DNA from: an uncultured Muribaculaceae bacterium
GTDB taxonomy: Bacteria > Bacillota_I > Bacilli_A > RF39 > UBA660
Direction of reading: 5' to 3'
NCBI GenBank assembly: GCA_964616495.1
Contig: CAZTRF010000003.1
Span: 1-45,970, forward strand
Length of the DNA stretch: 45,970 nucleotides
Under the pieces are notes generated by a model. It searched no databases. It saw nothing but the letters and a program-made list of their open reading frames with translations, and was not told the origin of the DNA. Below, piece after piece: positions 1,453-28,290 of this stretch. The stretch's first letter is position 1. Every line of letters starts with the position of its first letter. The position numbers were made by a program, and so were the translations under genes.

Positions 1453-1469
1453 TGGTATAATAAACTTAT

Positions 1470-2585
1470 ATGAAAAAGATTACAGTTATAACTTCTCATT
1501 TAGGTTATGGAGGCGTTGAACAATACCTTTCTTCTTTATGTGATATGTTAAAAGATAATTACGAAATAGAGTTAATTGTAGTTTATAAAAGTTATAGTGA
1601 ACCGGTATTTCCTTTTGATAAAAAAATTAACATAAAATATATATTTCCTTATATAGCATATCCATCTAACATAATAAAATATCTAAAGTCTTTTAAAATA
1701 GGTAAAGCCTTTAAAGAGGGATTACTTGGTTTAAATATTATTTTAAGTAGAAGGTATAAATTAATTGATATAGTAAGAAATTTAAAAACCGATATTGTTT
1801 TAACTACTAGACTAAAAGAAAGTAAATATGTTAATAGATATTGTTCTAAGAATATTTATAAAATATGTACTGAACATAATTATCCAACTGATTTATATAA
1901 ATTAAAATTATTAACGGGAATATCTAGATTTAATAAATTGGTGGTAGTTAATGATGAAATAAAAAATATATATGAAAAAGACTTTAAAGGAAAGGTAATT
2001 ACCATTCCTAATGTTATAGAAAATATTCCTTTAGAAAAATCTAAATTAAAAACCAATAATATTATTAGTATAGGGCGTTTAGAAAAAGAAAAAGGTATTC
2101 TAGATTTAATAGATGTTATTGATTTGGTATCAAAGCAAATTAAAGATGTGACATTATATTTAATTGGTGATGGAAAAGAAAGAAAAGAAATATCTAAAAA
2201 GATAAATAAACTAAACTTAAATAAAAATATTGTGATGACTGGTTTTTTAAATAAAAAAGATATATCTTTATATATGTTAAATAGTTCATTAATGGTTATG
2301 ACGTCATTTAAGGAGTCTTTTGGAATAGTTTTGTTAGAGGCAATGAGCTATGGGATACCGGTTATATCTTTTGAAAATAGTGGTTCTAGAGAGCTTATTA
2401 ATGGTAAGAATGGGTTAATAGTAAAAAATAGAAACATTAAAAGAATGGCTAAAGAAATTGTTAATTTATTAAATAATAAAAAAGAGTTAAAAACTTATAG
2501 TAAAGGTTGTTCTAAAGTATTAAGTAATTACAATAAAGAGGTTATAAAAGAAGAATGGTTAAAATTTTTAGGAGAAGTAAAATGA
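1470..2585 (+). CDS. Glycosyltransferase family 4 (GT-B, group 1)
   Basis: 371 aa. C-terminal E-x7-E region ESFGIVLLEAMSYGIPVISFENSGSRELI and the preceding GRLEKEKG motif are typical of GT4 enzymes. Confidence 0.8.
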   Translation: MKKITVITSHLGYGGVEQYLSSLCDMLKDNYEIELIVVYKSYSEPVFPFDKKINIKYIFPYIAYPSNIIKYLKSFKIGKAFKEGLLGLNIILSRRYKLIDIVRNLKTDIVLTTRLKESKYVNRYCSKNIYKICTEHNYPTDLYKLKLLTGISRFNKLVVVNDEIKNIYEKDFKGKVITIPNVIENIPLEKSKLKTNNIISIGRLEKEKGILDLIDVIDLVSKQIKDVTLYLIGDGKERKEISKKINKLNLNKNIVMTGFLNKKDISLYMLNSSLMVMTSFKESFGIVLLEAMSYGIPVISFENSGSRELINGKNGLIVKNRNIKRMAKEIVNLLNNKKELKTYSKGCSKVLSNYNKEVIKEEWLKFLGEVK

Positions 2586-2977
2586 AAAAAGGGCTATTAA
2601 TATTAATGAGTTTAATGATGATTGGATGCGGAAACAATCTTTTAGAAGAACAAAACAGTGAAAAGCTAAAAACTTTTGATAAAATAAGTACTGAAAGTGA
2701 ATATATTTATAATAAAGATGCCGAATATTTAATATTAGAAATTACTAATAAAAAAGTAACTAACGTCACTTTAAATATAGTTTATAAAAGTGAAGGAGAA
2801 GCAGAAAATGCCGAATCTTTACTTACTAATATAGATCAATATGAAAAGATAGAACGTGAAGTCAATATACTTATTGTGACATTTAAAGATAGTTATGTTA
2901 AAATATATAAAGACGCCAGTCTCAAAACAATTGATAAAGATTTAATTAAGGAAGGATATCATAAGATAGGTGAATAA
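2582..2977 (+). CDS. Small lipoprotein, unknown function
   Basis: I place the start at ATG 2582 (MKKGLLILMSLMMIGCGNN; lipobox LMMIGC). It overlaps the TGA stop of the GT4 gene as ATGA. The ORF-track start at 2555 lies inside the upstream gene. Confidence 0.6.
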   Translation: MKKGLLILMSLMMIGCGNNLLEEQNSEKLKTFDKISTESEYIYNKDAEYLILEITNKKVTNVTLNIVYKSEGEAENAESLLTNIDQYEKIEREVNILIVTFKDSYVKIYKDASLKTIDKDLIKEGYHKIGE

Positions 2978-3712
2978 ATGAAAAAAACATCAGTTAAAAG
3001 AATTGCGGCATACATAATAGATGCTTTAATATTGGGGTTGATAATTTCTTTAATATCAACAACTTCATATTTAAAAAGTAAAGATACTCAAGCTACAAAA
3101 TTAGAAAAACAAATTAGTAGTTATTATGAAAAATATGAAAACGAGGAGATAACAGCTAAAGAATATACTGATTTAACAATGGATTTAACATATAAAATTC
3201 AAAAATATGATAATCCAAGTCAAATATTAACTATTATTTTGTATATAGCTTATTTTGGTATTTTTCAGGCTTTAAATAAAGGTCAAACGATAGGCAAGAT
3301 GGTTATGAAAATAAAAATAAAAGGTTATCAAGATAAAAAAATTAACATTTTTAATTATTTGTTAAGATGTTTATTTTTATACGGAGTGTTAACAACAGCG
3401 ATTACCATTGGATTATATTATTTGCTAGATGTTAAAACGTTTTTCTATGCTAGTGCTTATGTGTCTTTAGCAGGTACCATTTTAGTATATATTATTATAT
3501 TTATGGTTTTAGTTAAACAAGATGGCAGAGGATTACATGATTATTTGGCTAAGACTGAAGTTATAGATACTACTGTTGTCCCAGAAGAAGTAAAAGAAGA
3601 ACCAAAAGAAAAAGTTATTGAAGCCGACTATGAAGAAACAAAAGCTCCAAAAAAGAAAACGAGTTCTAAAAAAAAGAACTCTTCAAAAAAAGTAACTAAA
3701 AAAATAAAGTAA
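2978..3712 (+). CDS. RDD family membrane protein with a Lys-rich C-terminal tail
   Basis: N-terminal KRIAAYIIDALILG and C-terminal GRGLHDYLAKTEV motifs bracket TM helices, as in the RDD domain. The tail is KKKTSSKKKNSSKKVTKKIK. The start abuts the previous stop. Confidence 0.7.
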   Translation: MKKTSVKRIAAYIIDALILGLIISLISTTSYLKSKDTQATKLEKQISSYYEKYENEEITAKEYTDLTMDLTYKIQKYDNPSQILTIILYIAYFGIFQALNKGQTIGKMVMKIKIKGYQDKKINIFNYLLRCLFLYGVLTTAITIGLYYLLDVKTFFYASAYVSLAGTILVYIIIFMVLVKQDGRGLHDYLAKTEVIDTTVVPEEVKEEPKEKVIEADYEETKAPKKKTSSKKKNSSKKVTKKIK

Positions 3713-3736
3713 AAGCGATTAAAGGAAGTTTGAATC

Positions 3737-4756
3737 ATGAAGAATACTAAAATTAATGGTATTATTCTATTTGTTGTAACTGCGGCTATACTTATTTATG
3801 TATTAAAAGATAATTTTACGCAAACGATTAATATAATTAGTTCAGCAAATTTATTGTGGATTCTAATAGCGATAACTTTATATGTTATTGCCTTTTCCGT
3901 TGAAACAATGGTTTTAAGGAAGTTGATTAAACAATATAAAAAAGATTACTCTCTTTTATCAACATTTAAATTAACGATTATGACCAAGTTTTTTAATGGT
4001 ATTACTCCTTTTTCAGCTGGAGGAAGGCCCTTACAATTAATTGAATTTAAAAAAAGAGACATAAAAATATCTGATGGGACTAATATTGTAGTTCAGCAGT
4101 TTATCGTTTTTGAAATATCATTTATTATTTTAGCGGGTATTTCTTTTATATTAGATTATATTTTTAACTTTTTTTCTTATGTGCCGATACTTGATAAATT
4201 GACTAAAATTGGTTTCTTAATAAACATTGCGATTTTAGGAATAGCTTTCTTATTAAGCCTTAGTAAGAAATTAAATAAAAAAATAGTGAAAGCAATTGTA
4301 CTGTTATTGTCAGGACTAAAAATAGTTAAAAATAAAGAAGAACAATTAGAAAAATGGGAAGCAACGTGCAATGAGTATTATGATGGCTTTAATAGTTTTA
4401 GAAATAATCGTCAAACGGTTTGGAAATGTATTTTGTTAGAACTTATAGCATTAATGATAGAATATATGATTCCTTTATGTATTTTTAAATCATTAGGGCC
4501 AACCATTAACTTAAATATAATTAGTTGTCTAGTAGCTTCAGTATTTGTTTATATGTCGGGTTGTTATATACCCATTCCTGGAGGAACAGGAGGAATGGAA
4601 TACGGCTTTATGAATTATTTTGCAAATTTTACAGGGGTATTTTTAATCTCACCAGCATTAATTTTGTGGAGATTTATAACATATTATCTTCCAACATTAA
4701 TTGGGGGAATAGCTTTTAATATTAATAAAAAGAAAAACGAAAAAATGATATTATAG
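3737..4756 (+). CDS. UPF0104 / lysyl-phosphatidylglycerol-synthase-TM-like flippase-like membrane protein
   Basis: 339 aa, about 8 TM helices. The conserved-looking motif YIPIPGGTGGMEYGF resembles the P-x-PGG-x-G-x-E signature of the UPF0104 family. Confidence 0.6.
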   Translation: MKNTKINGIILFVVTAAILIYVLKDNFTQTINIISSANLLWILIAITLYVIAFSVETMVLRKLIKQYKKDYSLLSTFKLTIMTKFFNGITPFSAGGRPLQLIEFKKRDIKISDGTNIVVQQFIVFEISFIILAGISFILDYIFNFFSYVPILDKLTKIGFLINIAILGIAFLLSLSKKLNKKIVKAIVLLLSGLKIVKNKEEQLEKWEATCNEYYDGFNSFRNNRQTVWKCILLELIALMIEYMIPLCIFKSLGPTINLNIISCLVASVFVYMSGCYIPIPGGTGGMEYGFMNYFANFTGVFLISPALILWRFITYYLPTLIGGIAFNINKKKNEKMIL

Positions 4757-4764
4757 AATAATAC

Positions 4765-5235
4765 ATGTTAAAATTTATGATATGGGAGGTGAGCAAAATT
4801 AAAAAAATAATTTTAAATGGAATATTGATATTGGTTTTAGTTTTTGGAGTAGTAGGATGTGGAAGTCAAAGCCCATCTTCTAACGAAAAAAATACGAGTC
4901 AGGGCGAAAATATTATTAATAATGAAGAAATAAAATTATATTCAGATGATACAAAATTGGTATTTAATTTAAGTGCTTATACAGCAGTATATTATTTTGA
5001 AGGAGATGTCGTAACTGGGTTAGAATATTATTTTGAATATCCAGATTCAGCAACTGCTGCAGCAGCCGTATCTTCAATTAAAGCTGGTTATACAGCTGAA
5101 GATAATATAGAAAAAGTAATTCAAAAAGGAAATTATGTGATTGTAAAATTTAAAAATGCTGAATATCAAGATTTGAAAGTTAGTGAAATTAAAGAAACCT
5201 ATAAATATTTAGATGAATTTTATAAAAACAATTAA
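4765..5235 (+). CDS. Small lipoprotein, unknown function
   Basis: Signal peptide with lipobox LVFGVVGCGSQ. The exact start is uncertain: ATG 4765 or 4777, and a GGGAGGTGA Shine-Dalgarno at 4785-4793 would favour a later non-ATG start. Followed by a hairpin terminator. Confidence 0.6.
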   Translation: MLKFMIWEVSKIKKIILNGILILVLVFGVVGCGSQSPSSNEKNTSQGENIINNEEIKLYSDDTKLVFNLSAYTAVYYFEGDVVTGLEYYFEYPDSATAAAAVSSIKAGYTAEDNIEKVIQKGNYVIVKFKNAEYQDLKVSEIKETYKYLDEFYKNN

Positions 5236-5256
5236 AGCACATTATAGTGCTTTTTT
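5236..5256 (+). terminator. Rho-independent terminator
   Basis: AGCACATTATAGTGC hairpin followed by TTTTTT, immediately after the stop at 5235. Confidence 0.7.
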
Positions 5257-5296
5257 GGATGATTAGCCAAATTATAACAAAATGATTGGAGAAAAA

Positions 5297-5836
5297 ATGG
5301 AAGAATATTTTGATGTACTTGATGAAAATGGGAATCCTACTGGAAAGAAAAAATTAAGAAAAGAAGTTCACAGAGATGGCGATTGGCATAGAACGGTTCA
5401 TATATGGATAATAAACGGTAAAAAAGAAATTCTTTTACAAAGAAGATGCAAAGATAAAGATAGTTTTCCTAATATGTTAGATGTATCATGTGGCGGGCAT
5501 TTATCTGCTGGAGATTCTTCTTTAGTTGGAGCAATAAGGGAGATTAAAGAAGAATTAAATTTAGATATAAGCAAAAACGATTTGGAATTTTTAACCACTT
5601 TAAAACACACTATAAATTATAAAGAAGATTTTCTTAACAACCAATTTGAAGATATTTACATATTAAAAAAAGATATTAAGTTAGAAGATATGAGTTATCA
5701 AGAGGAAGAAATATCTGAAATAATATATTTTTCTTATAAAGATTTTATTAATATGATAAATAATAAGGATAGAGAATTAATTATTAGAGAAGAAGAATTT
5801 GAAATACTAAAAGATTATTTAAATAATTTGAAATAG
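5297..5836 (+). CDS. NUDIX hydrolase
   Basis: Nudix box GGHLSAGDSSLVGAIREIKEELNL. Likely start ATG 5297 (MEEYFDVLDENG) after a TGGAGA RBS; the track start is 5282. Confidence 0.8.
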   Translation: MEEYFDVLDENGNPTGKKKLRKEVHRDGDWHRTVHIWIINGKKEILLQRRCKDKDSFPNMLDVSCGGHLSAGDSSLVGAIREIKEELNLDISKNDLEFLTTLKHTINYKEDFLNNQFEDIYILKKDIKLEDMSYQEEEISEIIYFSYKDFINMINNKDRELIIREEEFEILKDYLNNLK

Positions 5837-5855
5837 CACATTACAGTGCTTTTTT
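5835..5855 (+). terminator. Rho-independent terminator (near-identical copy of 5236-5256)
   Basis: AGCACATTACAGTGC plus a T-run. It differs from the 5236 hairpin by one loop base. Confidence 0.7.
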
Positions 5856-5879
5856 CATATGATAAAATAGGTGATTAAC

Positions 5880-5933
5880 ATGGATAGAACTTTAATAGGT
5901 ATTGTAATAGATCCAGGACAAGAATGTTTCTGA
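5880..5933 (+). pseudogene. 5' segment of a split N-acetylmuramoyl-L-alanine amidase gene (native codons 1-13 plus CA, then element-derived read-through to a stop)
   Basis: AGGTGA RBS then ATG 5880. Translation is MDRTLIGIVIDPG|QECF*. IVIDPG is the start of the Amidase_3 DPGHGG motif, and the native sequence ends at the CA at 5919-5920. Confidence 0.8.
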
Positions 5934-6074
5934 TAACCCCAATAAAAAATAAAACTAGATATCACAAATAATATAAAAATTATAAATAGTAATTTATAAA
6001 TTTAAAAGCAATTAAATATCTTTACTTTTGCATAACAAAGTGCTATAATGTAATACATAAGTAAAGGTGATATT

Positions 6075-6653
6075 ATGTCTAATAAAGAAAAAGTAATAGA
6101 CTTATTAAATAATAACGGTTATTTTACTACTTCTGAATTTTTAAATCTAGGATTAAGTAAAACGACTTTAAAAAATTATTTAAATGAAGGAATAATTGAA
6201 AAAGTATGTAATGGTATATATATAGAACCAAAATTATTAGAAGATGAGCTATATGTTATTCAATTAAAATATCCATTTGCTGTTGCTTCTTATGAATCTG
6301 CACTTGATATTTTAGGACTTTTAAATGATATTCCAACAGATGTAAGTGTTACAATTCCAAGAGGAAAATCAGTAAGAGCAAAGTGTAAAGTTCATTATAT
6401 TTCTAAAAATAAATATGATATAGGGATAATTTATGTAGTTAATGGTTTTGGGAATAAAATAAAAACATATAATGCCGAGAGATGTATATGTGATATGCTT
6501 AGATCAGAGAATGATTTAGAACAGCAAAATCGCACGTTAAATTATTATTTTAACAACGAATCAAAAAATATAGAAAGACTATTGGAATATGCGAAAATAT
6601 TTAATATTTATGAAAAAGTAAATACAATTGTTGATGTAATGATGAAATGGTAG
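6075..6653 (+). CDS. AbiEi-family type IV toxin-antitoxin antitoxin / transcriptional regulator
   Basis: 192 aa. N-terminal wHTH pattern GYFTTSEFLNLGLSKTTLKNYLNEGIIEKVCNGIYI, then YPFAVASYESALDILGL and VSVTIPRG, as in AbiEi_4 proteins. An extended -10 promoter (TGCTATAAT) lies at about 6040-6049. Confidence 0.75.
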   Translation: MSNKEKVIDLLNNNGYFTTSEFLNLGLSKTTLKNYLNEGIIEKVCNGIYIEPKLLEDELYVIQLKYPFAVASYESALDILGLLNDIPTDVSVTIPRGKSVRAKCKVHYISKNKYDIGIIYVVNGFGNKIKTYNAERCICDMLRSENDLEQQNRTLNYYFNNESKNIERLLEYAKIFNIYEKVNTIVDVMMKW

Positions 6654-6781
6654 AAGAAAAGATATTTAAAGAAAGCATAAATAAAGTTAAAAAAAATTAT
6701 AATTTATCATATTATGAAGTTTTACAAAGATATATGTTTGAAAGAATATTAGAACGTATTTCCTACATTAAAAATAAATAG
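6647..6781 (+). pseudogene. Truncated AbiEii/AbiGii nucleotidyltransferase toxin (only about 37 native codons remain)
   Basis: ATGG-TAG overlap with the abiEi stop, which is typical TA coupling. MVEEKIFKESINKVKKNYNLSYYEVLQRYMFERILERIS matches the conserved AbiEii N-terminus (Y-x-x-ER-x-L-x-R-x-S). The reading frame then enters the 86-bp repeat at 6757 and stops at 6779-6781. Confidence 0.7.
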
Positions 6782-6842
6782 TTTATATTGGATATTTATA
6801 TCAACTGGTTTATTAGGAAATTACTACTTTTTAAATAAATGG
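6757..6842. repeat. 86-bp perfect inverted repeat, copy A
   Basis: Exact reverse complement of 7777-7862, checked base by base. The flanking bases differ on both sides. Confidence 0.9.
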
Positions 6843-6855
6843 AGGTGTGAAAAAA

Positions 6856-7263
6856 ATGAAAAAATGTATTAATTGTAAAGCTGAAATTGATACTAAAATA
6901 AAAATTTGTCCAAATTGTGAAAGAAAACAACCAAATTATTACGAAAAGGAAATATCAATTTTTTTAATACTATTAATTATTGTTTCTTTCATATTAATTG
7001 GGATATTAGAAAGTCAAAATAGTGGTGGTTCTGAAAATAAATGTTATATTTCAATAGAAGAATTTAATGAAATAAAAACTGGCATGACTTATGAAGAAGT
7101 TAAAAACATTGTTGGATGTGACGGTACTGTTAATTCTGAAACAGAATTAATGGGTTCTAAAATGACGATATATTCGTGGTATGGTAAAGATGGAATTTCA
7201 AATGCTAATATAAATATTCAAGATGACAAGCTTATTAATAAAACACAAATTGGTTTAAAGTAA
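6856..7263 (+). CDS. Zinc-ribbon / single-TM / DUF3862-like (BLIP-like) domain protein
   Basis: CINCKAEIDTKIKICPNC zinc ribbon, TM helix ISIFLILLIIVSFILIGIL, and a C-terminal ISIEEFNEIKTGMTYEEVKNIVG...YSWYG pattern. Start ATG 6856 after a TGGAGG RBS. A hairpin terminator lies at about 7350-7397. Confidence 0.6.
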   Translation: MKKCINCKAEIDTKIKICPNCERKQPNYYEKEISIFLILLIIVSFILIGILESQNSGGSENKCYISIEEFNEIKTGMTYEEVKNIVGCDGTVNSETELMGSKMTIYSWYGKDGISNANINIQDDKLINKTQIGLK

Positions 7264-7491
7264 CTAAAAATTCCATTTTAGTAACACACTACGATATTGG
7301 CTAGCCAATATCGATTGTGCAAAGGAAAATCCCTTTTGAAACCCTATATAGCAATATAATGTAAATTAATTATAAACATTATATTGCTTTTTTTATCAAA
7401 TTATTTTGATAAAAAATAAAAAGACTATCGCTACTTTCATTTGCAAGCAAACAAAACGTACCACGTCTTTTTAATAAAATAAGTCTAAACT

Positions 7492-7944
7492 TTAAATTGT
7501 GTAGACTTGTTTTTTTGGAATTATTTTACTTATCTTTTTAATTGTTTTATCAGTTATTACTACTAATAGGTATAAAACAATTAGAGATAAAATATATAAT
7601 GAAATCATTAATATATAATTACTTGTTACTTTAGCAAATGTATCTAATACATATATTATACAAATTATTACTGTATATAATCCAACTACAAAGAAAGTTG
7701 CATCAGATGGTTTCCTAGTAATATTTTTGTCATAATTCTTATCAGCTTTTCTAAACCGGGTAATCCCATCTTTAGACCATTTATTTAAAAAGTAGTAATT
7801 TCCTAATAAACCAGTTGATATAAATATCCAATATAAACTATTTATTTTTAATGTAGGAAATATCAGTACAAGACATAATGCTATAAATGAAAGTACACAA
7901 CTAATTATTTGAGTCTTATTTAAATACTTATTTATTTTTTTCAT
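7492..7944 (-). CDS. Element-encoded 4-TM membrane protein, unknown function
   Basis: 150-aa ORF with four hydrophobic helices. It overlaps the end of the XRE gene by 17 nt, which suggests one operon. Confidence 0.55.
   Translation of the reverse strand: MKKINKYLNKTQIISCVLSFIALCLVLIFPTLKINSLYWIFISTGLLGNYYFLNKWSKDGITRFRKADKNYDKNITRKPSDATFFVVGLYTVIICIIYVLDTFAKVTSNYILMISLYILSLIVLYLLVVITDKTIKKISKIIPKKQVYTI
7777..7862. repeat. 86-bp perfect inverted repeat, copy B (inside the membrane-protein gene)
   Basis: Reverse complement of 6757-6842. On the minus strand it encodes IFPTLKINSLYWIFISTGLLGNYYFLNKW of the 7492-7944 ORF. Confidence 0.9.
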
Positions 7945-8437
7945 TTTGTAACCTCTCTTTGACCTTATTACTTTCTAAAAGCTTTATTATTTCTTGATTA
8001 GTATTACTTTGATATTTTAAATCCTCAATAGTTTCTTCTAATACATTCTTATCTTCTTCTTTAAGTTTTTCGTTATCAATTCTTTTTTGCAATGACTCAA
8101 TAATAATATCATTATTTTTTATACTAGCTAAAGCAGTAAACAAAGCATCATCTAATTCGTTGCCTTTTAAGTTGGCGTAATGATCCAATAAGTATGGATT
8201 TAAAGCACTTACTTGAACTCCTAAACCAATCATATACATTAAGTCATTATAATTAATATCTATATATTTACTAATTTTTCTTAATGTTTTTGGATTTGGA
8301 TCTTGTCTTAATCCAGACTCTATTTTAGATAATTCTGAATTACTGATTTTAGCAACTTTTGCAAGTTGTCTTTGAGATAATCCAGCATTTTCTCTAGCTT
8401 CTGCTATTATCTTTCCAATAGTTCCGTTTTCTTGCAT
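7928..8437 (-). CDS. XRE-family HTH transcriptional regulator (CI-like repressor)
   Basis: N-terminal HTH_3 motif IGKIIAEARENAGLSQRQLAKVAKISNSELSKIESG, with a coiled-coil-like C-terminus. It is divergent from the rightward element genes. Confidence 0.8.
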   Translation of the reverse strand: MQENGTIGKIIAEARENAGLSQRQLAKVAKISNSELSKIESGLRQDPNPKTLRKISKYIDINYNDLMYMIGLGVQVSALNPYLLDHYANLKGNELDDALFTALASIKNNDIIIESLQKRIDNEKLKEEDKNVLEETIEDLKYQSNTNQEIIKLLESNKVKERLQNEKNK

Positions 8438-8609
8438 ACTATCACCTCACAACATAATAATACTATATTAGTTTCCAAATGTCAACAAAAATGTTAAAAA
8501 TGTTTCTAAAAGTATTGACAAGGTAATAATTACTATGTTATATTGATGTTGACAAAAGGAAACATTGATATTAAAAATGTTTCTTGTAAGGAAAGGAGAG
8601 AAGATATGA

Positions 8610-8873
8610 TTGAAAACAAATATCCATGGAGTTCCAGATAAAATATGGAAAGACAAAAGAATAAAACCTGAGGGAAAACTAATATATGCTTATATTTATT
8701 CTAAAGGAAGTGAAAGAATAATAACGAATATAAATGTTGGTGAAATACAACAAGTAGTTAAAATGAAAAATCCAGGATTAAAAAATAATCTTCAAAGATT
8801 AGAAAAATTTAAATATATAGTATATAAAGAATACTCACAAGGGATGTATACAATATCATTACTAAACTGTTAA
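8610..8873 (+). CDS. Small putative winged-helix DNA-binding protein (element early gene)
   Basis: 87-aa ORF with a TTG start about 10 nt after AAGGAAAGGAGAG. Its pattern (KLIYAYIYSKG...INVGEIQQVV...LKNNLQRLEKFKYIV) resembles that of the next ORF. A hairpin lies at about 8890-8920. Confidence 0.45.
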   Translation: MKTNIHGVPDKIWKDKRIKPEGKLIYAYIYSKGSERIITNINVGEIQQVVKMKNPGLKNNLQRLEKFKYIVYKEYSQGMYTISLLNC

Positions 8874-8994
8874 AAATACATTAGTAATGTAGGTACAGTA
8901 AGAATAAGTCTTATGCTAGTACCTTTTCTATAAGATATATAGAATAAATGAATTCGGTAAACCCGAATATTATCAAAATAAATATAGGGGAACT

Positions 8995-9480
8995 ATGCGA
9001 TTAAAAGGTGAGTTTATTATGGTTCCTGATTTATCTTTAATAGATGATAATTTATCACAAGCTGATAAATTAGTATTAGGATTAATAATTTCATTATCTT
9101 TTAAGAATAACTATTGTTTTGCTAGTAATAAATATTTAGGAATGAGAATTAGAGTTTCACCTAGAACAATAACGGATTCATTAAAAAAGTTAAAATTGAA
9201 TAAATATATAATAATAAAATATATTGATAAAAAAAGACATATATATCTAAATAAAGAAAAGGTATTAGTAGAAGATAATTCTACTAATGAAGCAAGAAAT
9301 TGCACCTATCTATATGCAGAAATTTGCGACCATAATATAAAGACTAAATATAAAAAGAAAAATAATATTAGTAATAATCCAGTCCCAATATGGATGGAGC
9401 ATCCTGAAATGTGTGAAAGTAAGAAAGCTTCTCTGGAAGAAATAAAAGAAATGGAAGATTTACTAAAAGATTTTAAATAA
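8995..9480 (+). CDS. Putative winged-helix protein (phage replisome-organizer N-terminal-like)
   Basis: LSQADKLVLGLIISLSFKNNYCFASNKYLGMRIRVSPRTITDSLKKLKLNKYIII is typical of wHTH phage and plasmid proteins. A more likely start is ATG 9019, after AAGGTGAG. Confidence 0.5.
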   Translation: MRLKGEFIMVPDLSLIDDNLSQADKLVLGLIISLSFKNNYCFASNKYLGMRIRVSPRTITDSLKKLKLNKYIIIKYIDKKRHIYLNKEKVLVEDNSTNEARNCTYLYAEICDHNIKTKYKKKNNISNNPVPIWMEHPEMCESKKASLEEIKEMEDLLKDFK

Positions 9481-9556
9481 ATGAAAGTGAGGATTGATAT
9501 ATGAATATAATTTATGGAGGGTATTATTTATAATTAATACAAAAGGGGGAATTAAG

Positions 9557-9694
9557 ATGGAGGTAGTATATAATGTAACATACAAATATAAAAGTAAAGA
9601 GATTTTAACAAAAGATGAAATAAAAGAGATATTTAATAGGAAACTAATTAATATAATACTAAATATGGAGAATCAAGATTTAAAAAATGCTTGA
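9557..9694 (+). CDS. Small 45-aa ORF upstream of the recombinase (candidate directionality factor; speculative)
   Basis: MEVVYNVTYKYKSKEILTKDEIKEIFNRKLINIILNMENQDLKNA, preceded by an AAAGGGGGA RBS. No recognisable family. Confidence 0.3.
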   Translation: MEVVYNVTYKYKSKEILTKDEIKEIFNRKLINIILNMENQDLKNA

Positions 9695-9754
9695 ACTAGT
9701 ATATAATGTATTTGTGATATCTAGTTATTCAAGATTAATAATGGAGGAATAACT

Positions 9755-11347
9755 ATGATAGAGAAAGTAGGTGTATATTGTAGATTATCTGATGAAGATA
9801 GATTTAAGACTAATAAAAATGATGATAGTGATAGTATAGTAAATCAAAGAAGTATGTGTGTTAAGTTTGCAGTTAATAATGGTTGGGATGTAGTTGATAT
9901 ATATTCTGATGATGATTTTTCTGGAGCAGGTGTAGATAGACCTGGTTTTAATAAATTAATTGAAGATTGCGAAAGTAGAAAGATAAACTTAGTATTATGT
10001 AAAACACAATCAAGATTTTCAAGAGATTTAGAAGTTATAGAAAGATACTTACACAATAAATTTATAGAATGGGGAGTAAGATTTGTTAGTATTGTAGATA
10101 ATGCTGATACAAGTAATGAATCAAATAAAAAATCTCGTCAAATAAATGGACTTATGAATGAATGGTATCTTGAGGATTTATCACAAAATATAAAGAAGTC
10201 TTTAAAAAATAAAAGAGAAGATGGATTGTTTATGGGAAGCTTTGCTCCATATGGTTATGTTAGAAGTAGTGAAAATAAGCATAAATTAATAGTTGATCCA
10301 GTAGCTAGTAAAGTTGTTAAAGAAATTTTTGAAAGATATAAAAATGGAGAAGGATATTTTAAAATAGCACAATATTTAAACAATAATAATATTCCAACTC
10401 CATCAGTATATAAAAAACAATCTGGAAGTAACTTTGTATGTTGCAATAATAATTATAAGAATCCGATTTGGACTATTGATACAATTGCTAAATTACTTCG
10501 TAATGAAGTTTACATTGGCAATCTTGTTCAAGGTAAAAGAACTTCGCTAGGCTATAAGGTTCATAAGTTTAGGAAAGTAAATGAAAAAGATTGGTGTAGA
10601 ACTGAAAATACACATGATGCAGTTATTGATAAAGAAACTTGGAACTTAGTTCAAAAAAGACTTGGAACACATGAATCTCCAACAAGAACTGGAGAAGTAC
10701 ACTATTTTAGCAAAAAGGTTTATTGTTCAGACTGTGGGAAAGTATTTACAAGAAATGTTTTCAACACAAAAAGTGGAAAGAAAGCATATCTACAATGTAA
10801 AGGTGCAAAGAAACTTAATATATGTGAAAACAACAAATCTATTAAAATAGGAGAATTAGAAATAATAGTTATAAATGCTATAAATGATTTATTAAATAAT
10901 TACTATGATAAAGATAATTTACAAGAATACTACAATAATATAAAAAGTAATGATAAGACAATTAAAGAAACAATAGATGTTCTTAACAAAGAAAAAAACA
11001 ATCTTGATAAAAAGATTGCGGAAAACAAAAGCTATTTTAGAAAATTATATGAAGATAAAAATAATGAATTAATTACTGAAGATATGTTTAAAATGTTAAC
11101 CAGTGATTATTCAAAAGAAATAGATAATATGATTTTACGAAAGAACAATATAGATAATGAAATAGATTGTCTTAATACTAAAGAAGATAATAGAAAACAA
11201 GCAAGTGATATATTTAAAAAATATAAACATATAAAAAAATTAGATAAACTAATTATTGATGAGTTTATAGAAAAGATAAATATAGGAGCTTATAATAAAG
11301 AAACAAATTCACGAGATATAGAAATCGAATGGAACTTTGAAATTTAA
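9755..11347 (+). CDS. Large serine recombinase (SpoIVCA/CisA-type integrase)
   Basis: Resolvase catalytic domain (VGVYCRLSDED with the nucleophile Ser; TQSRFSRD), a recombinase domain, a Cys zinc ribbon (YCSDCGKVF...LQCKG...ICEN) and a long C-terminal coiled coil. 530 aa. Confidence 0.9.
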   Translation: MIEKVGVYCRLSDEDRFKTNKNDDSDSIVNQRSMCVKFAVNNGWDVVDIYSDDDFSGAGVDRPGFNKLIEDCESRKINLVLCKTQSRFSRDLEVIERYLHNKFIEWGVRFVSIVDNADTSNESNKKSRQINGLMNEWYLEDLSQNIKKSLKNKREDGLFMGSFAPYGYVRSSENKHKLIVDPVASKVVKEIFERYKNGEGYFKIAQYLNNNNIPTPSVYKKQSGSNFVCCNNNYKNPIWTIDTIAKLLRNEVYIGNLVQGKRTSLGYKVHKFRKVNEKDWCRTENTHDAVIDKETWNLVQKRLGTHESPTRTGEVHYFSKKVYCSDCGKVFTRNVFNTKSGKKAYLQCKGAKKLNICENNKSIKIGELEIIVINAINDLLNNYYDKDNLQEYYNNIKSNDKTIKETIDVLNKEKNNLDKKIAENKSYFRKLYEDKNNELITEDMFKMLTSDYSKEIDNMILRKNNIDNEIDCLNTKEDNRKQASDIFKKYKHIKKLDKLIIDEFIEKINIGAYNKETNSRDIEIEWNFEI

Positions 11348-11385
11348 GAAATAGATAATATTTGGGTTAAACCGAAACATTCTCA

Positions 11386-12532
11386 TGGTGGAAGTGATGG
11401 TGGAGCAGTAGGTAATAATCTTGTTGAAAAAGAATTAAATTTAAAAATATCAAATTATATGTATAATCGATTTAAAGAATTGGGAGTGCCAGTATCAATT
11501 ACTAGAATGACTGATGAAAGCCTTGAACCGATTGAAAGAACAAATAAAATCCAATCATTTTATGGTGATGGTAAAGATGTAGTGGTAATATCAAATCATA
11601 TAAATGCAGGTGGTGGGGATGGTGCCGAAGTAATTTACGCTTTAAGAAATAATGATACATTAGCTAAGAAAATATCTAATGAAATAGAAAAAGAAGGTCA
11701 AAATATTAGAAAGTATTATCAAAGAAGATTGCCTAGCAACTCGGCTAAAGATTATTATTTTATTCATAGAGATACCCCAAATAATGAAGCGGTTATAGTT
11801 GAGTATGGTTTCTTAGATAGTACTGGAGATGATGTAGAACAATTAACTAATAATTGGGAAAAATATGCCGAAGCTGTAGTTAGAGCAGTAGCGGATTATA
11901 AAAATATTCCCTATACTCCTCTTGTAGGAAGTGGGTACTATGTTGTTCAAAAAGGTGATTCTTTATGGAGCATAGCTAAGAAATATGGCTTAAATGTTGA
12001 TGAATTAAAGGAAATAAACAACTTAAGCAGTAATTTGTTACAAGTTGGAGATGTTTTAAAAGTGATCAAGGAATTTCCCGCTTTAAATGAAAATACTTAT
12101 ATTGTTCAAAAAGGAGATACTTTATATAGTATAGCCAACAAATATAAAATGACAGTTAATGAATTAAAAAGTCTAAATAATTTAAGTTCAAACATTTTAA
12201 CCATAGGTCAAAAATTATTAATTAATAAAAGTGAAGAATATGATATTTATACGGTTGAAAAAGGAGATACTCTGTATCGAATTGCTAATACTTATGGAAT
12301 ATCTGTTGCTGAATTGAAGGATATTAACAATCTAACAACAAATGAGTTATATATAGGTCAAAAGCTTAAGGTTCCGGGGAATGAAACTAATAAAGTATAT
12401 ACGGTAGTAAAAGGAGATAACTTGTATCGAATAGCTCAAAAATTTAATACAACCGTTTCAGCTTTAGAAAGTTTAAATAATTTAAAAAGTAGCACTTTAA
12501 GTATAGGCCAACAGATTTTAATTCCAAATTAA
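11386..12532 (+). CDS. 3' segment of the split N-acetylmuramoyl-L-alanine amidase (Amidase_3 domain plus four LysM repeats)
   Basis: The frame is open from 11348, immediately after the recombinase stop. It reads [23 protein letters not shown]...[17 protein letters not shown] (Amidase_3 zinc and catalytic motifs), then four repeats of Y-x-V-x-KGD-(T/S/N)-L-(Y/W)-(S/R)-IA...LN(N)L. The track ORF starts at internal ATG 11459. Confidence 0.85.
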
Positions 12533-12557
12533 AAAATATCTTAACAAGATATTTTTT
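12531..12557. terminator. Bidirectional terminator between convergent genes
   Basis: AAAATATCTT-AACA-AGATATTTT palindrome flanked by an A-run and a T-run. Confidence 0.65.
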
Positions 12558-12978
12558 AATGTATTTCTTTACAAATACTAGGCTCCGGATTATAAAAGCA
12601 ATGATTTTTATATCTTCCTGAAAGCTTTTGATTATACCAAGTTGATTTGCAACTAGTGCCTGTAGCTGGGGCATAAAACCACAATGCGTTAGTAGCAGGA
12701 TGATAGTATTCTCCATCTAGAACACGTTCGGCAAGCCTTTTTTCTAAGGTAGTTGCAGCACTTTGAAATAAAGAACTACTCGTACCAACAAATTGACTTT
12801 TTTGATATATTGCCTCAGTAACAGTTCTGATGTCTTTAAAAGTTAAGCAATTGGCAATCACTCTATTAACTACGACATTTCCAACCATGAGCATGCCTAA
12901 ATTGCCTTCTGCTAAAGCTTCTGCTCTCATAATTCTAGCCAAAAGATCTTTTTCTTTAGTTGAATATTGTATAAACAT
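12556..12978 (-). CDS. cwlJ: Spore cortex-lytic enzyme, CwlJ/SleB (Hydrolase_2) family
   Basis: 140 aa. LLARIMRAEALAEGNLGMLMVGNVVVNRV...ALWFYAP...WYNQ...KNHCFYNP aligns along its length with my recollection of B. subtilis CwlJ (LMARLLRAEAEGEG...LLVGNVGINRL...SLWYF...WYNQ...KSHCFYQP). Confidence 0.8.
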   Translation of the reverse strand: MFIQYSTKEKDLLARIMRAEALAEGNLGMLMVGNVVVNRVIANCLTFKDIRTVTEAIYQKSQFVGTSSSLFQSAATTLEKRLAERVLDGEYYHPATNALWFYAPATGTSCKSTWYNQKLSGRYKNHCFYNPEPSICKEIH

Positions 12979-13053
12979 ATAATCACCTCATTAATATATT
13001 ATGTTATTTATTATTGAAATATTTTTATTAAAGTGATAAAATAACACACATGT

Positions 13054-13127
13054 AGAGGCGTGGTATAATGGTAGCATAGGAGTCTCCAAAACTTTTGATG
13101 GGAGTTCGATTCTCTCCGCCTCTGCCA
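13054..13127 (+). tRNA. trnW: tRNA-Trp (anticodon CCA)
   Basis: Cloverleaf folded by hand. Acceptor stem AGAGGCG/CGCCTCT, anticodon loop CTCCAAA, T-arm GGGAG-TTCGATT-CTCTC, discriminator G and an encoded CCA end. Confidence 0.85.
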
Positions 13128-13138
13128 TTTAGTGATTT

Positions 13139-13164
13139 AAACAAATAGAAATATTTGTTTTTTT
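13139..13164 (+). terminator. Rho-independent terminator after tRNA-Trp
   Basis: AAACAAATA-GAAA-TATTTGTTT followed by TTTT. Confidence 0.65.
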
Positions 13165-13190
13165 GTGATATGCTTTTTGTAGGTGATAAT

Positions 13191-13832
13191 ATGATCAATA
13201 TTTTGTTTAGTGGAATTGATAAAGAAAATGGATTTACAAATAAGCAAGCGGAAGTATTAAAAAAAGATTTAACTGATGATATGAGTATTACATTTGTATC
13301 TTCTATTTTTAATAACTATGAGCGAAGTAATGCACAATTTACTAGATATTTAAATTGCTTTAAAAAGATAGGAATAACGTTTAGTAGTAGTTATATTATT
13401 GATAATAGAATGAATATAAGTGAAGCATGTGAAAAAGTTGCTAATTCGGACATTGTATTTCTATTAAGTGGATCTCCAGAATTACAAATGAAATCTATAA
13501 TCGAGTATAATTTGACAGACTTAATTTCAAAATCGAAAATAATAATTGGAGTAAGTGCGGGATCAATGAACCAATCTAAAATAGTTATGTATAGAGATGA
13601 TTTTGATAATAATACAATGAAAAAATATTATGGATTAAATTTAATAGATATAAATATATTTCCTCATGTTTCTTTTGAAAATAAGAAATTGTTAGAAGAA
13701 GCAAAAGAAATAAGTGAATATATGCCACTTATTTTACTTCAAAATGAATCATTTATAAGAATTAATAATGGTTTGATGGACGTTTTTGGTAAATATTATA
13801 TTTTAAATAATAGAATTTTGATAAAAAAATGA
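13191..13832 (+). CDS. Peptidase S51 (dipeptidase E-like) family protein
   Basis: GVSAGSM nucleophile motif in a class-I glutamine-amidotransferase-like context. Start ATG 13191 after AGGTGA; the track start 13155 lies within the tRNA terminator. Confidence 0.6.
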   Translation: MINILFSGIDKENGFTNKQAEVLKKDLTDDMSITFVSSIFNNYERSNAQFTRYLNCFKKIGITFSSSYIIDNRMNISEACEKVANSDIVFLLSGSPELQMKSIIEYNLTDLISKSKIIIGVSAGSMNQSKIVMYRDDFDNNTMKKYYGLNLIDINIFPHVSFENKKLLEEAKEISEYMPLILLQNESFIRINNGLMDVFGKYYILNNRILIKK

Positions 13833-13860
13833 AATTGTTATAATTAAATTGGGTGATAAA

Positions 13861-14355
13861 ATGAATATAAAACTAAAAAAAATAGAAAGTAAAGATAAAA
13901 TTGTTTTAAATAATTTATTTCAACTATACATGCATGATATTACTGGTTCATTACCTATGGAAGTAAATGAACATGGATTATTTGAATATAATGAAATTGA
14001 CTACTATTTTAATAAAGAAACTAAGCGTTTTGCATATTTTATTAAAGCAGATAATCAACTTGCTGGTTTTGCATTAATAGATGATGATTTTATGGTTTTA
14101 GATAAAAAAGATAATAATTATGATTTTTCGGAAATGTTTATATTGAATTCTTATAAAAATAAAGGTATTGGGAAAATAGCTGCAGAAAAAATATTTGATA
14201 TGCATCAGGGCAATTGGGAAGTTAAACCGGTTCCAAGGAGCGAAGGTGCTAAAAGATTTTGGGAAAGAACAATAAAAGAATATACCAAAGATAATTATAA
14301 AATTGAATATCCTAAACCTAATAGGACTACTTTTATATTTAATAACAAAAAATAA
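13861..14355 (+). CDS. GNAT-family N-acetyltransferase
   Basis: FSEMFILNSYKNKGIGKIAAEKIF is an acetyl-CoA-binding Q/R-x-x-G-x-G/A-like motif. Start ATG 13861 after GGGTGA. Confidence 0.65.
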   Translation: MNIKLKKIESKDKIVLNNLFQLYMHDITGSLPMEVNEHGLFEYNEIDYYFNKETKRFAYFIKADNQLAGFALIDDDFMVLDKKDNNYDFSEMFILNSYKNKGIGKIAAEKIFDMHQGNWEVKPVPRSEGAKRFWERTIKEYTKDNYKIEYPKPNRTTFIFNNKK

Positions 14356-14516
14356 TATAAGGTTTAAGTAATGAATTTTTATACTTAAACGACCTTATAT
14401 AGAAGTGTTCACTTTTACAAAAAAGTTTGTTTTTTAATGCTTATAATAAGTACGTAAATACATGCTAATTTAACTTTTTAAATAGATAACGATTTATATT
14501 TGTTTGTATAGGTTAT

Positions 14517-14545
14517 TTGACAAAAATAATATAAAGATATATAAT
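14517..14545 (+). promoter_or_regulatory. Consensus sigma-A promoter of the trpS leader
   Basis: TTGACA (14517-14522), a 17-nt spacer, then TATAAT (14540-14545). Confidence 0.7.
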
Positions 14546-14570
14546 CTAGCCATTAAAGGAGAAAAAAACT

Positions 14571-14654
14571 ATGAATAATTTTAATATTATTAAATTAAAC
14601 AATTCATGGTGGGTATGGGAAAAGGGTATCTCATACATTTTTTATCGTTCATAA
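14571..14654 (+). CDS. 27-codon Trp-rich leader peptide (MNNFNIIKLNNSWWVWEKGISYIFYRS) upstream of trpS
   Basis: AAAGGAGA RBS 8 nt upstream of ATG 14571. Three Trp codons fall within four positions (14607-14618). The ORF lies between the promoter and an intrinsic terminator. Confidence 0.6.
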   Translation: MNNFNIIKLNNSWWVWEKGISYIFYRS

Positions 14655-14685
14655 ATATTGACTTTATAATTAATTTGAAATGGAT

Positions 14686-14724
14686 AAATGTATGTATGAG
14701 TAAAATTATACATACATTTTTTTG
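14686..14724 (+). terminator. Leader terminator (attenuator) upstream of trpS
   Basis: Stem ATGTATGTATG (14688-14698) pairs with TATACATACAT (14707-14717), extended by A/T pairs and followed by a TTTTTTT run. It sits 50 nt before the trpS start. Confidence 0.7.
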
Positions 14725-14773
14725 TTAAGCATAAAACAATAAACAAATATAATAAAAGAAAGAGGAAATTAAG

Positions 14774-15778
14774 ATGAAAAAAACAATGATTACGGGGGTA
14801 CAACCAACAGGTAATTTTACATTAGCAAATTACATAGGAGCTATTAAAAACTTTGTAAATTTGCAAGAACAATATGATTCATATATCTTTATAGCTGATT
14901 TACATGGATTAACCACTTATCAGGATCCAAAAAAGATTCATGAAACCATTTTAAATTTAGCAGCAATTTATTTAGCATGTGGAGTAGATCCTACACATAC
15001 TAGTTTATTTGTTCAAAATGAGGTTTCAGAACATTGTACATTAGGATTTTTAATTGCATTTCAATGTAGAATTGGCGAATTATCTAGGATGACACAATAT
15101 AAATCAAAAAAGCAAAAGTTAGGAGAAAATGGAATAGATTTAGGGCTTTTTATATATCCGGCATTAATGGCAGCAGATATTCTTTTATACGATGCAGATA
15201 TTGTTCCGGTTGGCATGGACCAAAAACAACATATAGAAATTACTAGAAACTTAGGAGAAAGATTTAATAAAAAATTTGGTAATACATTTAAATTACCAGA
15301 ATATTATATTCCTGCGGTTGGAGCTAAAATTATGAATTTACAAAATCCAAACGAAAAAATGAGCAAATCGGCTTCACCAACCGATAAAGGAACAATATTT
15401 ATATTGGATGATATAGAAGTAACTAAAAAGAAAATAATGCAAGCTAAAACTGATGACGATAATCAAATTAAATTTGACGAAAAAAATAAACCTGGTATAT
15501 CTAATTTAATTTCTATTATGTCAGCATTGACCAATATAGAAGTAAAAGATATAGAAGAAAAATATAAAAAATATAATTATGGGGACTTTAAAAAAGCGTT
15601 AGCTGAAGAAGTTGAAAGCTTTATTTTACCTATCCAAGAAAGATATAAAAAATATAGATATAGTTCAGAATTACTAGAAATATTGAATAATGGTTCTAAC
15701 AAGGCAAAACGAGTTGCCAGTCAAAAAATTAAAATAGTTAAACAAAAAATGGGTATTAATTATATGGAAGAGTTATAG
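14774..15778 (+). CDS. trpS: Tryptophan--tRNA ligase
   Basis: 334 aa. TGVQPTGNFTLANYIGA (TrpRS variant of the HIGH motif), YPALMAADILLYDADIVPVGMDQKQHIEITRNLGERFN and KMSKS. These are collinear with my recollection of Bacillus TrpRS. Confidence 0.95.
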   Translation: MKKTMITGVQPTGNFTLANYIGAIKNFVNLQEQYDSYIFIADLHGLTTYQDPKKIHETILNLAAIYLACGVDPTHTSLFVQNEVSEHCTLGFLIAFQCRIGELSRMTQYKSKKQKLGENGIDLGLFIYPALMAADILLYDADIVPVGMDQKQHIEITRNLGERFNKKFGNTFKLPEYYIPAVGAKIMNLQNPNEKMSKSASPTDKGTIFILDDIEVTKKKIMQAKTDDDNQIKFDEKNKPGISNLISIMSALTNIEVKDIEEKYKKYNYGDFKKALAEEVESFILPIQERYKKYRYSSELLEILNNGSNKAKRVASQKIKIVKQKMGINYMEEL

Positions 15779-15861
15779 TTGTAAAACCTTTAATTTTTAC
15801 CAATTATGACAAATAGAAATATCACTTTTTTTATGATAAAATATTTTTAAAGGAGATTTGT

Positions 15862-16338: not shown

Positions 16339-16438
16339 CTTAAATATGTATTTTAGTTGTATAACGAAACTTATTTAAAATGAATTTATAAACTTATGTT
16401 TATAAGTTAATTGAATGTTAATTAAAGGGAAGGTAAAT

Positions 16439-17041: not shown

Positions 17042-17143
17042 ACCAACAAGAGACATTATCATTAATTGTAAATGTCTTTTTTTTGTGCTAATATTCATAT
17101 AAATGAAAAAGGCATTAGTGACACTTTTAAAGAAGAGGTCGAT

Positions 17144-28280: not shown

Positions 28281-28290
28281 GGAGAGGACT

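Follow-up and report, generated by a model that had tools for sequence, protein, structure and literature searches.

We analysed a 45,970-nt stretch of DNA (hereafter the window; contig CAZTRF010000003.1 of assembly GCA_964616495.1, from an uncultured bacterium placed by GTDB in the RF39 group of Bacilli), in which a gene encoding a peptidoglycan amidase is split by an element that carries a large serine recombinase. The inserted element occupies 5921-11385 on the plus strand (equivalently 5919-11383), is 5,465 bp long, and has a GC content of 24.1% against 27.6% in its flanks. On its left lies a 5' stub of the amidase gene (5880-5920, plus strand), which provides codons 1-13 plus the CA of the His14 codon and matches the start of the intact allele (protein P0247, on contig L088). 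In the occupied state this stub runs on into the element and stops at 5933, resulting in a short open reading frame (ORF) at 5880-5933 that reads MDRTLIGIVIDPGQECF before its stop. On the right, the frame is open past the stop of the recombinase gene (11345-11347) and leads into the 3' part of the amidase gene (11386-12532, plus strand), which extends from the third base of the His14 codon to the stop. The initial annotation had described both reading frames, had placed a large serine recombinase at the edge of an insert within a gene, and had proposed that joining the two parts across a shared CA yields a protein of 395 amino acids; all this holds. Joining 5880-5920 to 11386-12532 in silico gives 1,188 nt, 395 codons for amino acids, and no internal stop, and Pfam recognises in the product the Amidase_3 profile (positions 1-173 of 174) and four LysM stretches. 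H14, E28, H85, and E153 all fall within the conserved motifs of a full-length catalytic domain, where, by the established roles in this family, H14, E28, and H85 are the zinc ligands and E153 is the catalytic glutamate. The alignments of the joined protein with the solved amidases 5J72 and 4RN7 begin at VIDPGHGG.

The junctions can be read to the base, and the idea that excision would rebuild the zinc-ligand histidine of DPGHGG proved exact at that resolution. The only sequence common to both junctions is the dinucleotide CA, at 5919-5920 (attL crossover, plus strand, where the alignment blocks of the empty contig L088 overlap by exactly 2 bp) and at 11384-11385 (attR crossover). The left arm derived from attP (AGAATGTTTCTGATAACCCC, 5921-5940, plus strand) is an inverted repeat of the right arm (GGGTTAAACCGAAACATTCT), which together with the attR CA spans 11364-11385 on the plus strand, as given by both the repeat and the alignment. 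The reconstructed attP, GGGTTAAACCGAAACATTCT-CA-AGAATGTTTCTGATAACCCC, is a perfect inverted repeat at the positions next to CA (10/10) and matches at 16/20 positions across the arms; the repeat finder independently returned the same arms (repeat I8). Palindromic arms around a 2-bp core look like a typical site of a large serine recombinase. The junction sequences are GATCCAGGACAAGAATGTTTC for attL, GAAACATTCTCATGGTGGAAG for attR, GATCCAGGACATGGTGGAAG for attB, and GAAACATTCTCAAGAATGTTTC for attP, and no other attB-like sites were found in the window. With the element in place, the earliest usable start in the 3' part is the ATG at 11459, giving a 357-residue product that keeps H85 and E153; with H14 and E28 missing, it retains only one of the three zinc ligands and should be inactive. 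Two ways in which the element might itself provide the amidase with an N-terminus were considered and rejected. A start supplied by the element is ruled out by the lack of ATG, GTG, or TTG from the recombinase stop to the junction. A read-through fusion was suggested by the recombinase stop being in frame with the 3' part, which is probably a coincidence, since the spacing of 36 nt found here becomes 37-39 nt and more in relatives.

Natural alleles of both kinds exist. Clustering at 90% groups the truncated product with P0247, a protein of 395 amino acids that does not differ at any residue from the one joined in silico. Contig L088 (run SRR8925790) is an exact empty site: it matches the window at 28-5920 (99.97% identity) and at 11384-13086 (100%), the two blocks overlapping only by the CA, and it shows the same synteny of NUDIX gene, amidase gene, and convergent Hydrolase_2 gene. 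A second exact empty site of the same species is present in L089 (SRR8925814), and L094 (SRR29243436) is a third allele without an insert at this first site. The occupied state is spanned at each end by a separate contig from run SRR8925788: L095 crosses attL (window 28-6786, 100% identity) and L093 crosses attR (9998-18842, 99.99%). Occupied and empty alleles differ by about 2 single-nucleotide polymorphisms across 7.6 kb of flank, which argues that the gain or loss of the element was very recent relative to point mutation. The check proposed at the outset, for uninterrupted orthologues in related genomes, is also answered: besides P0247, orthologues of about 450 amino acids (55-63% identical) are colinear across the junction through VIDPGHGG. 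Recombination of attL with attR at the CA would release 5,465 bp as a circle and restore the 395-residue gene exactly, as seen in silico and in the natural empty alleles.

The recombinase gene (9755-11347, plus strand) encodes 530 amino acids with the Resolvase, Recombinase, Zn_ribbon_recom, and DUF4368 domains (the latter, PF14287, at residues 470-528) and matches PHROG integrases; the catalytic R10 and S12 and the SRFSRD motif are present. It is preceded by a promoter/5' untranslated region (UTR) at 9679-9754 on the plus strand, with a promoter TTTAAA-17-TATAAT (9679-9707) and a predicted hairpin (9723-9730 pairing with 9747-9754) that buries the Shine-Dalgarno (SD) sequence (9743-9749) and the bases up to the AUG. 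Upstream, and all on the plus strand, are the genes of a small module: p87 (8610-8873), a HTH_36 replication-initiator-like protein (8995-9480), a tiny leader ORF encoding MNIIYGGYYL* (9501-9533), and p45 (9557-9694), a 45-residue protein always directly 5' of the recombinase. The tiny ORF, which in most related loci reads MIGGxxL*, ends in a conserved ATTTATAR just 5' of the strong p45 ribosome-binding site AAAAGGGGG, and may be a leader peptide. Neither p45 nor p87 had a usable match in Pfam, PHROGs, or NCBIfam, and p45 had no match at all in the three. This rightward operon is separated from a gene of the XRE family of repressors (7928-8437, minus strand; Pfam HTH_3/HTH_19 and PHROG repressor families) by a switch-like region (8457-8544) with divergent near-consensus sigmaA-type promoters, each with 11/12 matches: TTGACA-17-TATTAT leftwards and TTGACA-18-TATATT, with a TG, rightwards. 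Direct repeats (D1) lie at 8471-8584, and profile searches place a membrane protein gene at 7492-7944 on the minus strand. The module is conserved across the family of related elements, including p87, the HTH_36 gene, and the tiny leader ORF; the XRE gene is found in 34/48 loci with a related recombinase, and the minimal element L030 (2.6 kb) consists of p45 and the recombinase only.

The left half of the element carries cargo and the marks of a rearrangement. An AbiEi-like antitoxin gene (6075-6653, plus strand, Pfam AbiEi_4) is followed by a remnant of 44 residues of the AbiEii toxin (6647-6781, plus strand), which is complete (284 residues) in the relative L092. Next comes an ORF with zinc-ribbon, transmembrane, and BLIP-like features (6847-7263, plus strand), bracketed by a perfect 86-bp inverted duplication (6757-6842 and 7777-7862; repeat I1). 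The duplication may mark a segment capable of inversion or be the scar of a rearrangement, and the independent contig L095 stops inside it, at window position 6786. The insert is not phage-like, and a prophage origin was rejected: it has no structural or lysis genes, and its PHROG matches are only to regulators, replication proteins, and the integrase. Other samples yielded copies whose nucleotide identity to the window element is 98% and whose recombinases are 99% identical in amino acids. L092 is a version of about 10.6 kb in which AbiEi and AbiEii are intact and are followed by Lactamase_B, two unknown genes, a Mob_Pre relaxase, an HTH protein, TM2, BLIP, and then the same core module. Homology between the window copy and L092 is limited to 5910-6789 and 7254-11398, and Pfam detects no Mob_Pre/MobV relaxase in the window element, although one is present in the 98%-identical full-length copies L090 and L092, and also in L001 and L004. 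Given this partial homology, with the 86-bp inverted duplication lying at the breakpoint, the window copy derives from the 10.6-kb element by internal deletion and rearrangement, in which the body of the AbiEii toxin, several cargo genes, and Mob_Pre were lost.

Near-identical elements occupy different amidase genes, which indicates recent movement. The window-type recombinase (99% amino acid identity) was found in three different amidase targets. In L090 and L092 the insertion site is CATTCT-CA-TGGTGGTAGAGATCCG, reading HGGRDPGTMYGKIKEKD; this target is visible only over 18 N-terminal residues, HGGRDPGTMYGKIKEKDL, and these agree with the beginnings of targets resembling CwlD. In L091 the site is HGGNDPGAVNGKLLEKD, in a LysM amidase of 450 amino acids that is 51% identical to the window's and is followed by PNP_UDP_1. 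The traits expected of an integrative and mobilisable element (IME) can thus be found together in this family: an integration and excision enzyme of its own, insertion in a specific gene, and relatives with mobilisation genes and cargo. The cargo across the family includes Mob_Pre, AbiE, ApeA-HEPN, PadR/glyoxalase with a Tet-type GTPase, Lactamase_B, and BLIP. For example, L004, a relative with the same core module, encodes at 4327-6249 and 1766-3040 a Tet(M/O/W)-like ribosomal-protection GTPase (640 amino acids), PadR, glyoxalase, ApeA-HEPN, and a Mob_Pre relaxase, showing that the family can carry resistance and defence genes.

Many homologues of the recombinase are 65-72% identical to it. 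When each species was represented by a single genome, a scan gave at least 553 relatives, the best match there being 71% identical, and their hosts are nearly all metagenome-assembled genomes (MAGs) of uncultured gut 'Bacilli/Mollicutes/Tenericutes', plus Clostridium sp. CAG:417. Among annotated phages and plasmids there are no close relatives: the best matches do not exceed 37.5% identity, with TndX at 33%. We counted targets at 44 loci, those where the identity of the recombinase to the window's is 53% or more. At 41-42 of them an Amidase_3 fragment starting at residues 9-14 is found just 3' of the recombinase, and the crossover is at the same histidine codon of DPGHGG/DAGHGG in diverse LysM-type and CwlD-like amidase genes. 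An extra gene, e.g., Bro-N, is occasionally found between recombinase and amidase fragment, and one locus is inverted. Both ends are visible in twelve loci (eleven relatives and the window), with element sizes of 2.6-11.3 kb, attP arms that are palindromic at 12-16/20 positions, and stubs that read M..VVVDAG or ..VIDPG. P0123 is a single identical recombinase protein that adjoins four different amidase genes, 24-58% identical to the window's, always at CCTGCA-CA-TGGYGG. The recurrence of one histidine codon argues that attB is the DNA encoding D-(P/A)-G-H-G-G itself, with the crossover at the CA of the histidine codon.

Other arrangements were observed around related recombinases. In L016 (11599-11660) a family member lies in the opposite orientation, with a stub MNNLQVVIDAG (reverse strand) abutting the end of the recombinase gene, and the terminus of the element resembles a reversed HGGP. 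More distant recombinases (43-49% identical; loci L045-L087, e.g., L046 from 11425, L054 from 11575, L086 from 11569) are followed by coding sequence resembling ABC ATPases (QRVALIRTLA-like) or by other conserved sequences, which suggests that sister clades of recombinases use other conserved protein motifs as attB. In the cultured Ruminococcaceae bacterium Marseille-P2935 (L075, 11569-11620), a 43%-identical recombinase is directly followed by an intact-looking YYIDPGHGGMDGGAVG coding sequence, where the element end itself may supply the N-terminal motif. The same amidase genes also have a second recurrent breakpoint, after the second zinc-ligand motif SNH(I/L)NAGG(G), with different foreign DNA. 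It is found in L007, L010, L017, L022, L026, L030, L039, L040, L042, L044, and L001/L008, where the amidase fragments end at residues 88-98, and the foreign DNA in L001 includes genes for DUF6119, Fic, and type I restriction-modification. In L094 (position 1360), the allele of the window's species that is empty at the first site, the gene is broken at NAGG|; the equivalent positions in the window (11603-11626) are intact. At this second breakpoint no remainder of the amidase was found within 10 kb, nor was a responsible recombinase found there.

The targets are of two kinds. Some are short membrane-anchored amidases that match the TIGR02883 profile over positions 1-189 of 189 with 180-187 bits, below the cutoff of 221.55 bits, and are for this reason called CwlD-like here; in model species CwlD is required for germination. 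The others, including the window's, are LysM amidases without a signal peptide. Upstream of the window's amidase gene we found a motif resembling a sigmaK-type promoter, AC-N16-CATATGATA (5838-5864, plus strand), which overlaps a terminator-like hairpin of the NUDIX gene (5835-5850). The -10 ends 15 nt before the ATG, so that the transcript would start at the SD sequence, a caveat to the assignment. A -10 CATAnnnTA is found at -23 to -27 from the ATG in all LysM-type targets visible (8/8), in DNA that is otherwise unalignable, and AC lies 16-17 nt farther 5' in six of the eight; counting both strands, the 46-kb window has just five copies of the full sigmaK-type motif. This fixed distance in unalignable DNA supports a promoter of the sigmaK/sigmaE type, and the gene is plausibly a mother-cell gene analogous to cwlC. 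As in CwlC-type proteins, the Amidase_3 domain is N-terminal and there is no signal peptide, although LysM repeats replace the SPOR repeats and the NCBIfam equivalog level is not reached. Two neighbours singled out by the initial annotation are indeed there: a convergent gene for a cortex-lytic hydrolase of the CwlJ/SleB type (12556-12978, minus strand; Pfam Hydrolase_2, with a weak match to the catalytic part of SleB) and a gerA operon with profile matches to GerA, GerAC, and GerAB (40798-44439). A tRNA-Trp gene lies just past the former (13054-13127). Farther along, the window includes a block of genes for DUF2357, DUF4073, and other proteins (26739-31611) and an ORF of 2,657 amino acids (32795-40768).

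We consider it very probable that 5921-11385 is an integrated copy of a site-specific IME that is probably still excisable, has lost its relaxase, and belongs to a large family in uncultured low-GC spore-forming gut Bacilli. In this scenario a recombinase akin to TndX and TnpX would use the DNA of the first zinc motif of Amidase_3 as attB and exchange strands at the CA of the histidine codon. Insertion splits the amidase gene, and recombination between attL and attR would free the circle and restore the gene. In this copy the internal deletion has removed the relaxase; it could probably excise and reintegrate, and would not mobilise itself. The site may be a tolerated one: a LysM amidase without signal peptide, with a sigmaK/sigmaE-type promoter, next to cwlJ and with a CwlC-like role, would make the insertion costly only in late sporulation, and could then be a safe harbour. 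A number of points weigh against this explanation. First, the activity of the recombinase, its independence from a recombination directionality factor (RDF), and the inactivity of the truncated amidase are all deduced from sequence. Second, the attP circle junction (window-type and L004-type) had no match in the JGI metagenomes and IMG/VR, collections that do not hold the samples with the element (known in ENA/Logan). Third, it does not account for the inverted repeat of the recombinase leader that is conserved at the element's left end and described below. Fourth, all the targets seen are of sporulation type (CwlD-like, or LysM with a sigmaK-like promoter) and the split genes are common in representative genomes, which would be easier to explain if excision were coupled to sporulation.

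This last point bears on the most serious of the other explanations, which we regard as a tentative possibility: that the element is developmentally programmed, like skin, SPbeta, gin, and yin, being integrated in the germ line and excised in the sporulating mother cell. The promoter motif of the LysM-type targets is of the kind expected for mother-cell genes, and the convergent cwlJ-type gene and the gerA operon provide a matching context. A cost would be expected of unexcised insertions in the CwlD-like genes that are split in relatives, but representative genomes have many of them. Moreover, the conserved p45 is similar in size to GirX, the 6.5-kDa RDF of gin (PMC5595907), and the minimal element L030 with its p45 and recombinase resembles gin. 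The adjacency of p45 to the recombinase, kept even in L030, makes it a candidate RDF. On the other hand, in a motif-level test the sigmaE/sigmaK motifs (AC-N16/17-CATAnnnTA; ATA-N16-18-CATAYAnT) were not found in the element 5' of p45 or of the recombinase. There is instead, 5' of every recombinase gene, a conserved sigmaA-type promoter (TTtAAA-17-TATAAT, then ACTTGTATT), alongside an XRE switch. Near relatives encode a relaxase, a Tet-type GTPase, and defence functions and show recent movement between genes, and a heritable empty allele is dominant in other samples; this last argument is weak because skin and SPbeta are also polymorphic. TnpX-type recombinases, furthermore, need no RDF for excision (PMC5704250). 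Taken together, the sigmaA-type recombinase promoter, the hairpin burying the ribosome-binding site, and the operon facing an XRE repressor suggest that excision is most likely governed by the element and not by sporulation sigma factors, and a link of excision to sporulation is possible. The layout of skin/sigK put forward in the initial annotation thus stands for the split mother-cell-like gene and for the recombinase at its edge, whereas the element is a truncated mobile IME rather than a skin-like prophage remnant, and the promoter of the recombinase is of the sigmaA and not of the sporulation type.

The inverted copy of the recombinase leader, segment X (5953-6001, plus strand), corresponds to 9678-9726, that is, to the promoter-proximal region and 5'UTR of the recombinase gene; its core is perfect over 18/18 positions (5953-5970 against 9709-9726, the latter named X'; repeat I2). 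X is found at corresponding positions in L004, L011, L020, L021, L025, L029, L034, L044, and L092, and the complementarity between X and X' is specific to the cognate pair in 9/10 elements (ungapped score of 13.1 versus 7.5 and duplex energy of -27.6 versus -13.7 kcal/mol). X' overlaps the 5' arm, or anti-SD arm, of the hairpin that buries the SD and the AUG. Such a hairpin is predicted in 9/10 UTRs; in an alignment of 22 UTRs its eight pairs persist in 19-22, and compensatory changes are few. In the circular form the order would be recombinase stop, 36 nt, CA, 32 nt, X, and then, in most relatives, a conserved hairpin with a T-run. Since X lies on the sense strand, it would be transcribed with the recombinase mRNA only in the circle, or else by read-in from the amidase promoter, and either route could unlock translation of the recombinase.

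These features raise the idea of an RNA-gated recombinase, in which X pairs with the anti-SD arm and unlocks translation either in cis in the circle, as a burst of integrase for reintegration, or in trans through read-through from the amidase promoter. We find this doubtful. The perfect 18-nt inverted repeat, its cognate specificity, the hairpins sequestering the SD, and the conserved hairpin and T-run after X in most relatives speak for it; but the repeat in the window reaches into promoter DNA that is not transcribed (9678-9708), and over X the minus strand has a predicted sigmaA-like promoter (6006-5979), so that a role at the level of DNA, as a duplicated operator or an outward promoter, fits equally well, leaving the RNA switch as a lead and not a finding. 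Furthermore, the scarcity of compensatory changes in the hairpin goes with an SD side that is nearly invariant, the mismatches in imperfect X/X' pairs are a mix of G-U pairs and true mismatches, and the window element has no terminator after X. A more specific version, which we think improbable, is that of excision on demand: the sigmaK-type amidase promoter would read through the 41-nt stub into X, the X RNA would pair with the anti-SD arm of a recombinase mRNA that is constitutively transcribed and translationally locked, and the element would excise when the host needs the gene. If true, it would explain why IMEs without a sporulation promoter reside in sporulation amidase genes (including CwlD-like ones) of many species, why X co-varies with the recombinase leader, and why X is on the sense strand and close to the promoter.

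The initial annotation had offered as its alternative a fixed prophage remnant that merely inactivated the gene, and a dead element of this kind now seems very unlikely. The loss of the relaxase and the AbiEii toxin and the rearrangement scar would be expected of it. It is contradicted by a full-length recombinase with intact catalytic residues that is 98-99% identical to copies elsewhere, by two intact att arms, and by the polymorphism of occupied and empty alleles so close in sequence that gain or loss must be very recent. As for a chimera, which an apparent metagenome assembly and a perfect 86-bp inverted repeat might suggest, its probability is negligible, because separate per-run contigs span attL and attR at 99.99-100% identity, natural empty sites exist, and dozens of unrelated assemblies show junctions built in the same way.

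The favoured interpretation, an excisable IME, finds its closest parallels in the clostridial mobilisable and conjugative transposons Tn4451/Tn4453 (TnpX) and Tn5397 (TndX). They share with the window element a large serine recombinase ending in DUF4368 (among annotated proteins TndX comes closest, 33% identical over 85% of the query), a 2-bp crossover core with imperfect inverted arms, and a small size (5-11 kb); the Mob_Pre/MobV relaxase of the Tn4451 type is shared by the full-length relatives and not by the window copy. There are also differences. Identity is only about 33%, the core is CA rather than the GA of the Tn4451/Tn5397 group, the recombinase is at the right end reading outward, an XRE/p87/HTH_36/p45 module is present, and Tn4451 has low target specificity whereas nearly all loci counted here are at one codon of one motif. 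Elements of the Tn4451 family are known to use a serine recombinase on 2-bp cores, to excise as circles, and to carry a MobV relaxase, and IMEs with serine recombinases typically disrupt dispensable genes (PMC5704250). The streptococcal ones, e.g., in rumA, likewise have a single recombinase and disrupt a dispensable conserved gene, but differ in host clade, recombinase lineage, and target, which here is of sporulation type and set by a protein motif.

A second group of parallels is formed by the intervening elements of sporulation genes (skin/sigK, SPbeta/spsM, vfbin/spoVFB, vrin/spoVR, gin/gerE, yin/yabG), where a large serine recombinase also sits inside a probable mother-cell gene whose ORF is rebuilt on excision, and where a small ORF (GirX, SprB) accompanies the recombinase, as p45 does here. 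Such elements need not be prophages, as gin illustrates (PMC5595907, PMC4191935, PMC10747680). They differ in that the family described here lacks a sporulation-type promoter for recombinase and p45, has relatives that are mobile IMEs with cargo, and targets a conserved catalytic motif in several amidase genes instead of a single gene. The literature searched names sigK, spsM, spoVFB, spoVR, gerE, and yabG, and makes no mention of amidase genes as targets of intervening elements. Interrupted genes restored by precise excision in a particular cell state are also found in the comK phage of Listeria, an example of active lysogeny, and in the nifD, fdxN, and hupL elements of Cyanobacteria, although these are prophages or use tyrosine or XisF-type recombinases, with demonstrated conditional excision.

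DUF4368 has been described as a mark of the 'multi-targeting' clade of large serine recombinases, whose insertion into divergent target genes is explained by a sequence motif of greater complexity than AT-rich DNA (Durrant et al. 2022, PMC10083194). The window-type recombinase and P0123 show this behaviour, defined as recombinases that share 90% identity or more being located in target genes that share less than 50%. In this family, in contrast with that clade at large, the motif coincides with DNA encoding a catalytic site and all the targets belong to one enzyme family; the word 'amidase' is absent from the main text of PMC10083194. Overall, the element appears to work like a site-specific serine-recombinase IME of the Tn4451 type and, like skin, SPbeta, gin, and yin, it resides in a sporulation-type gene.

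Our analysis has implications for the study of gene-splitting elements, for which it adds 1) new targets, the peptidoglycan amidases, and new hosts, the uncultured low-GC gut Bacilli; 2) a recombinase lineage for which the DNA of a catalytic zinc motif is a portable landing pad across divergent genes and species; 3) a caution for annotation, since many 'truncated' amidase genes in gut MAGs are split genes and not pseudogenes; 4) a family whose relaxases, Tet-type GTPase, and defence genes make it relevant to gene flow in the gut; and 5) naturally occurring attB/attP pairs, useful as tools, that belong to new large serine recombinases. Should excision turn out to depend on sporulation or on transcription of the target gene, mobile elements would have a new means of concealment within developmental genes.

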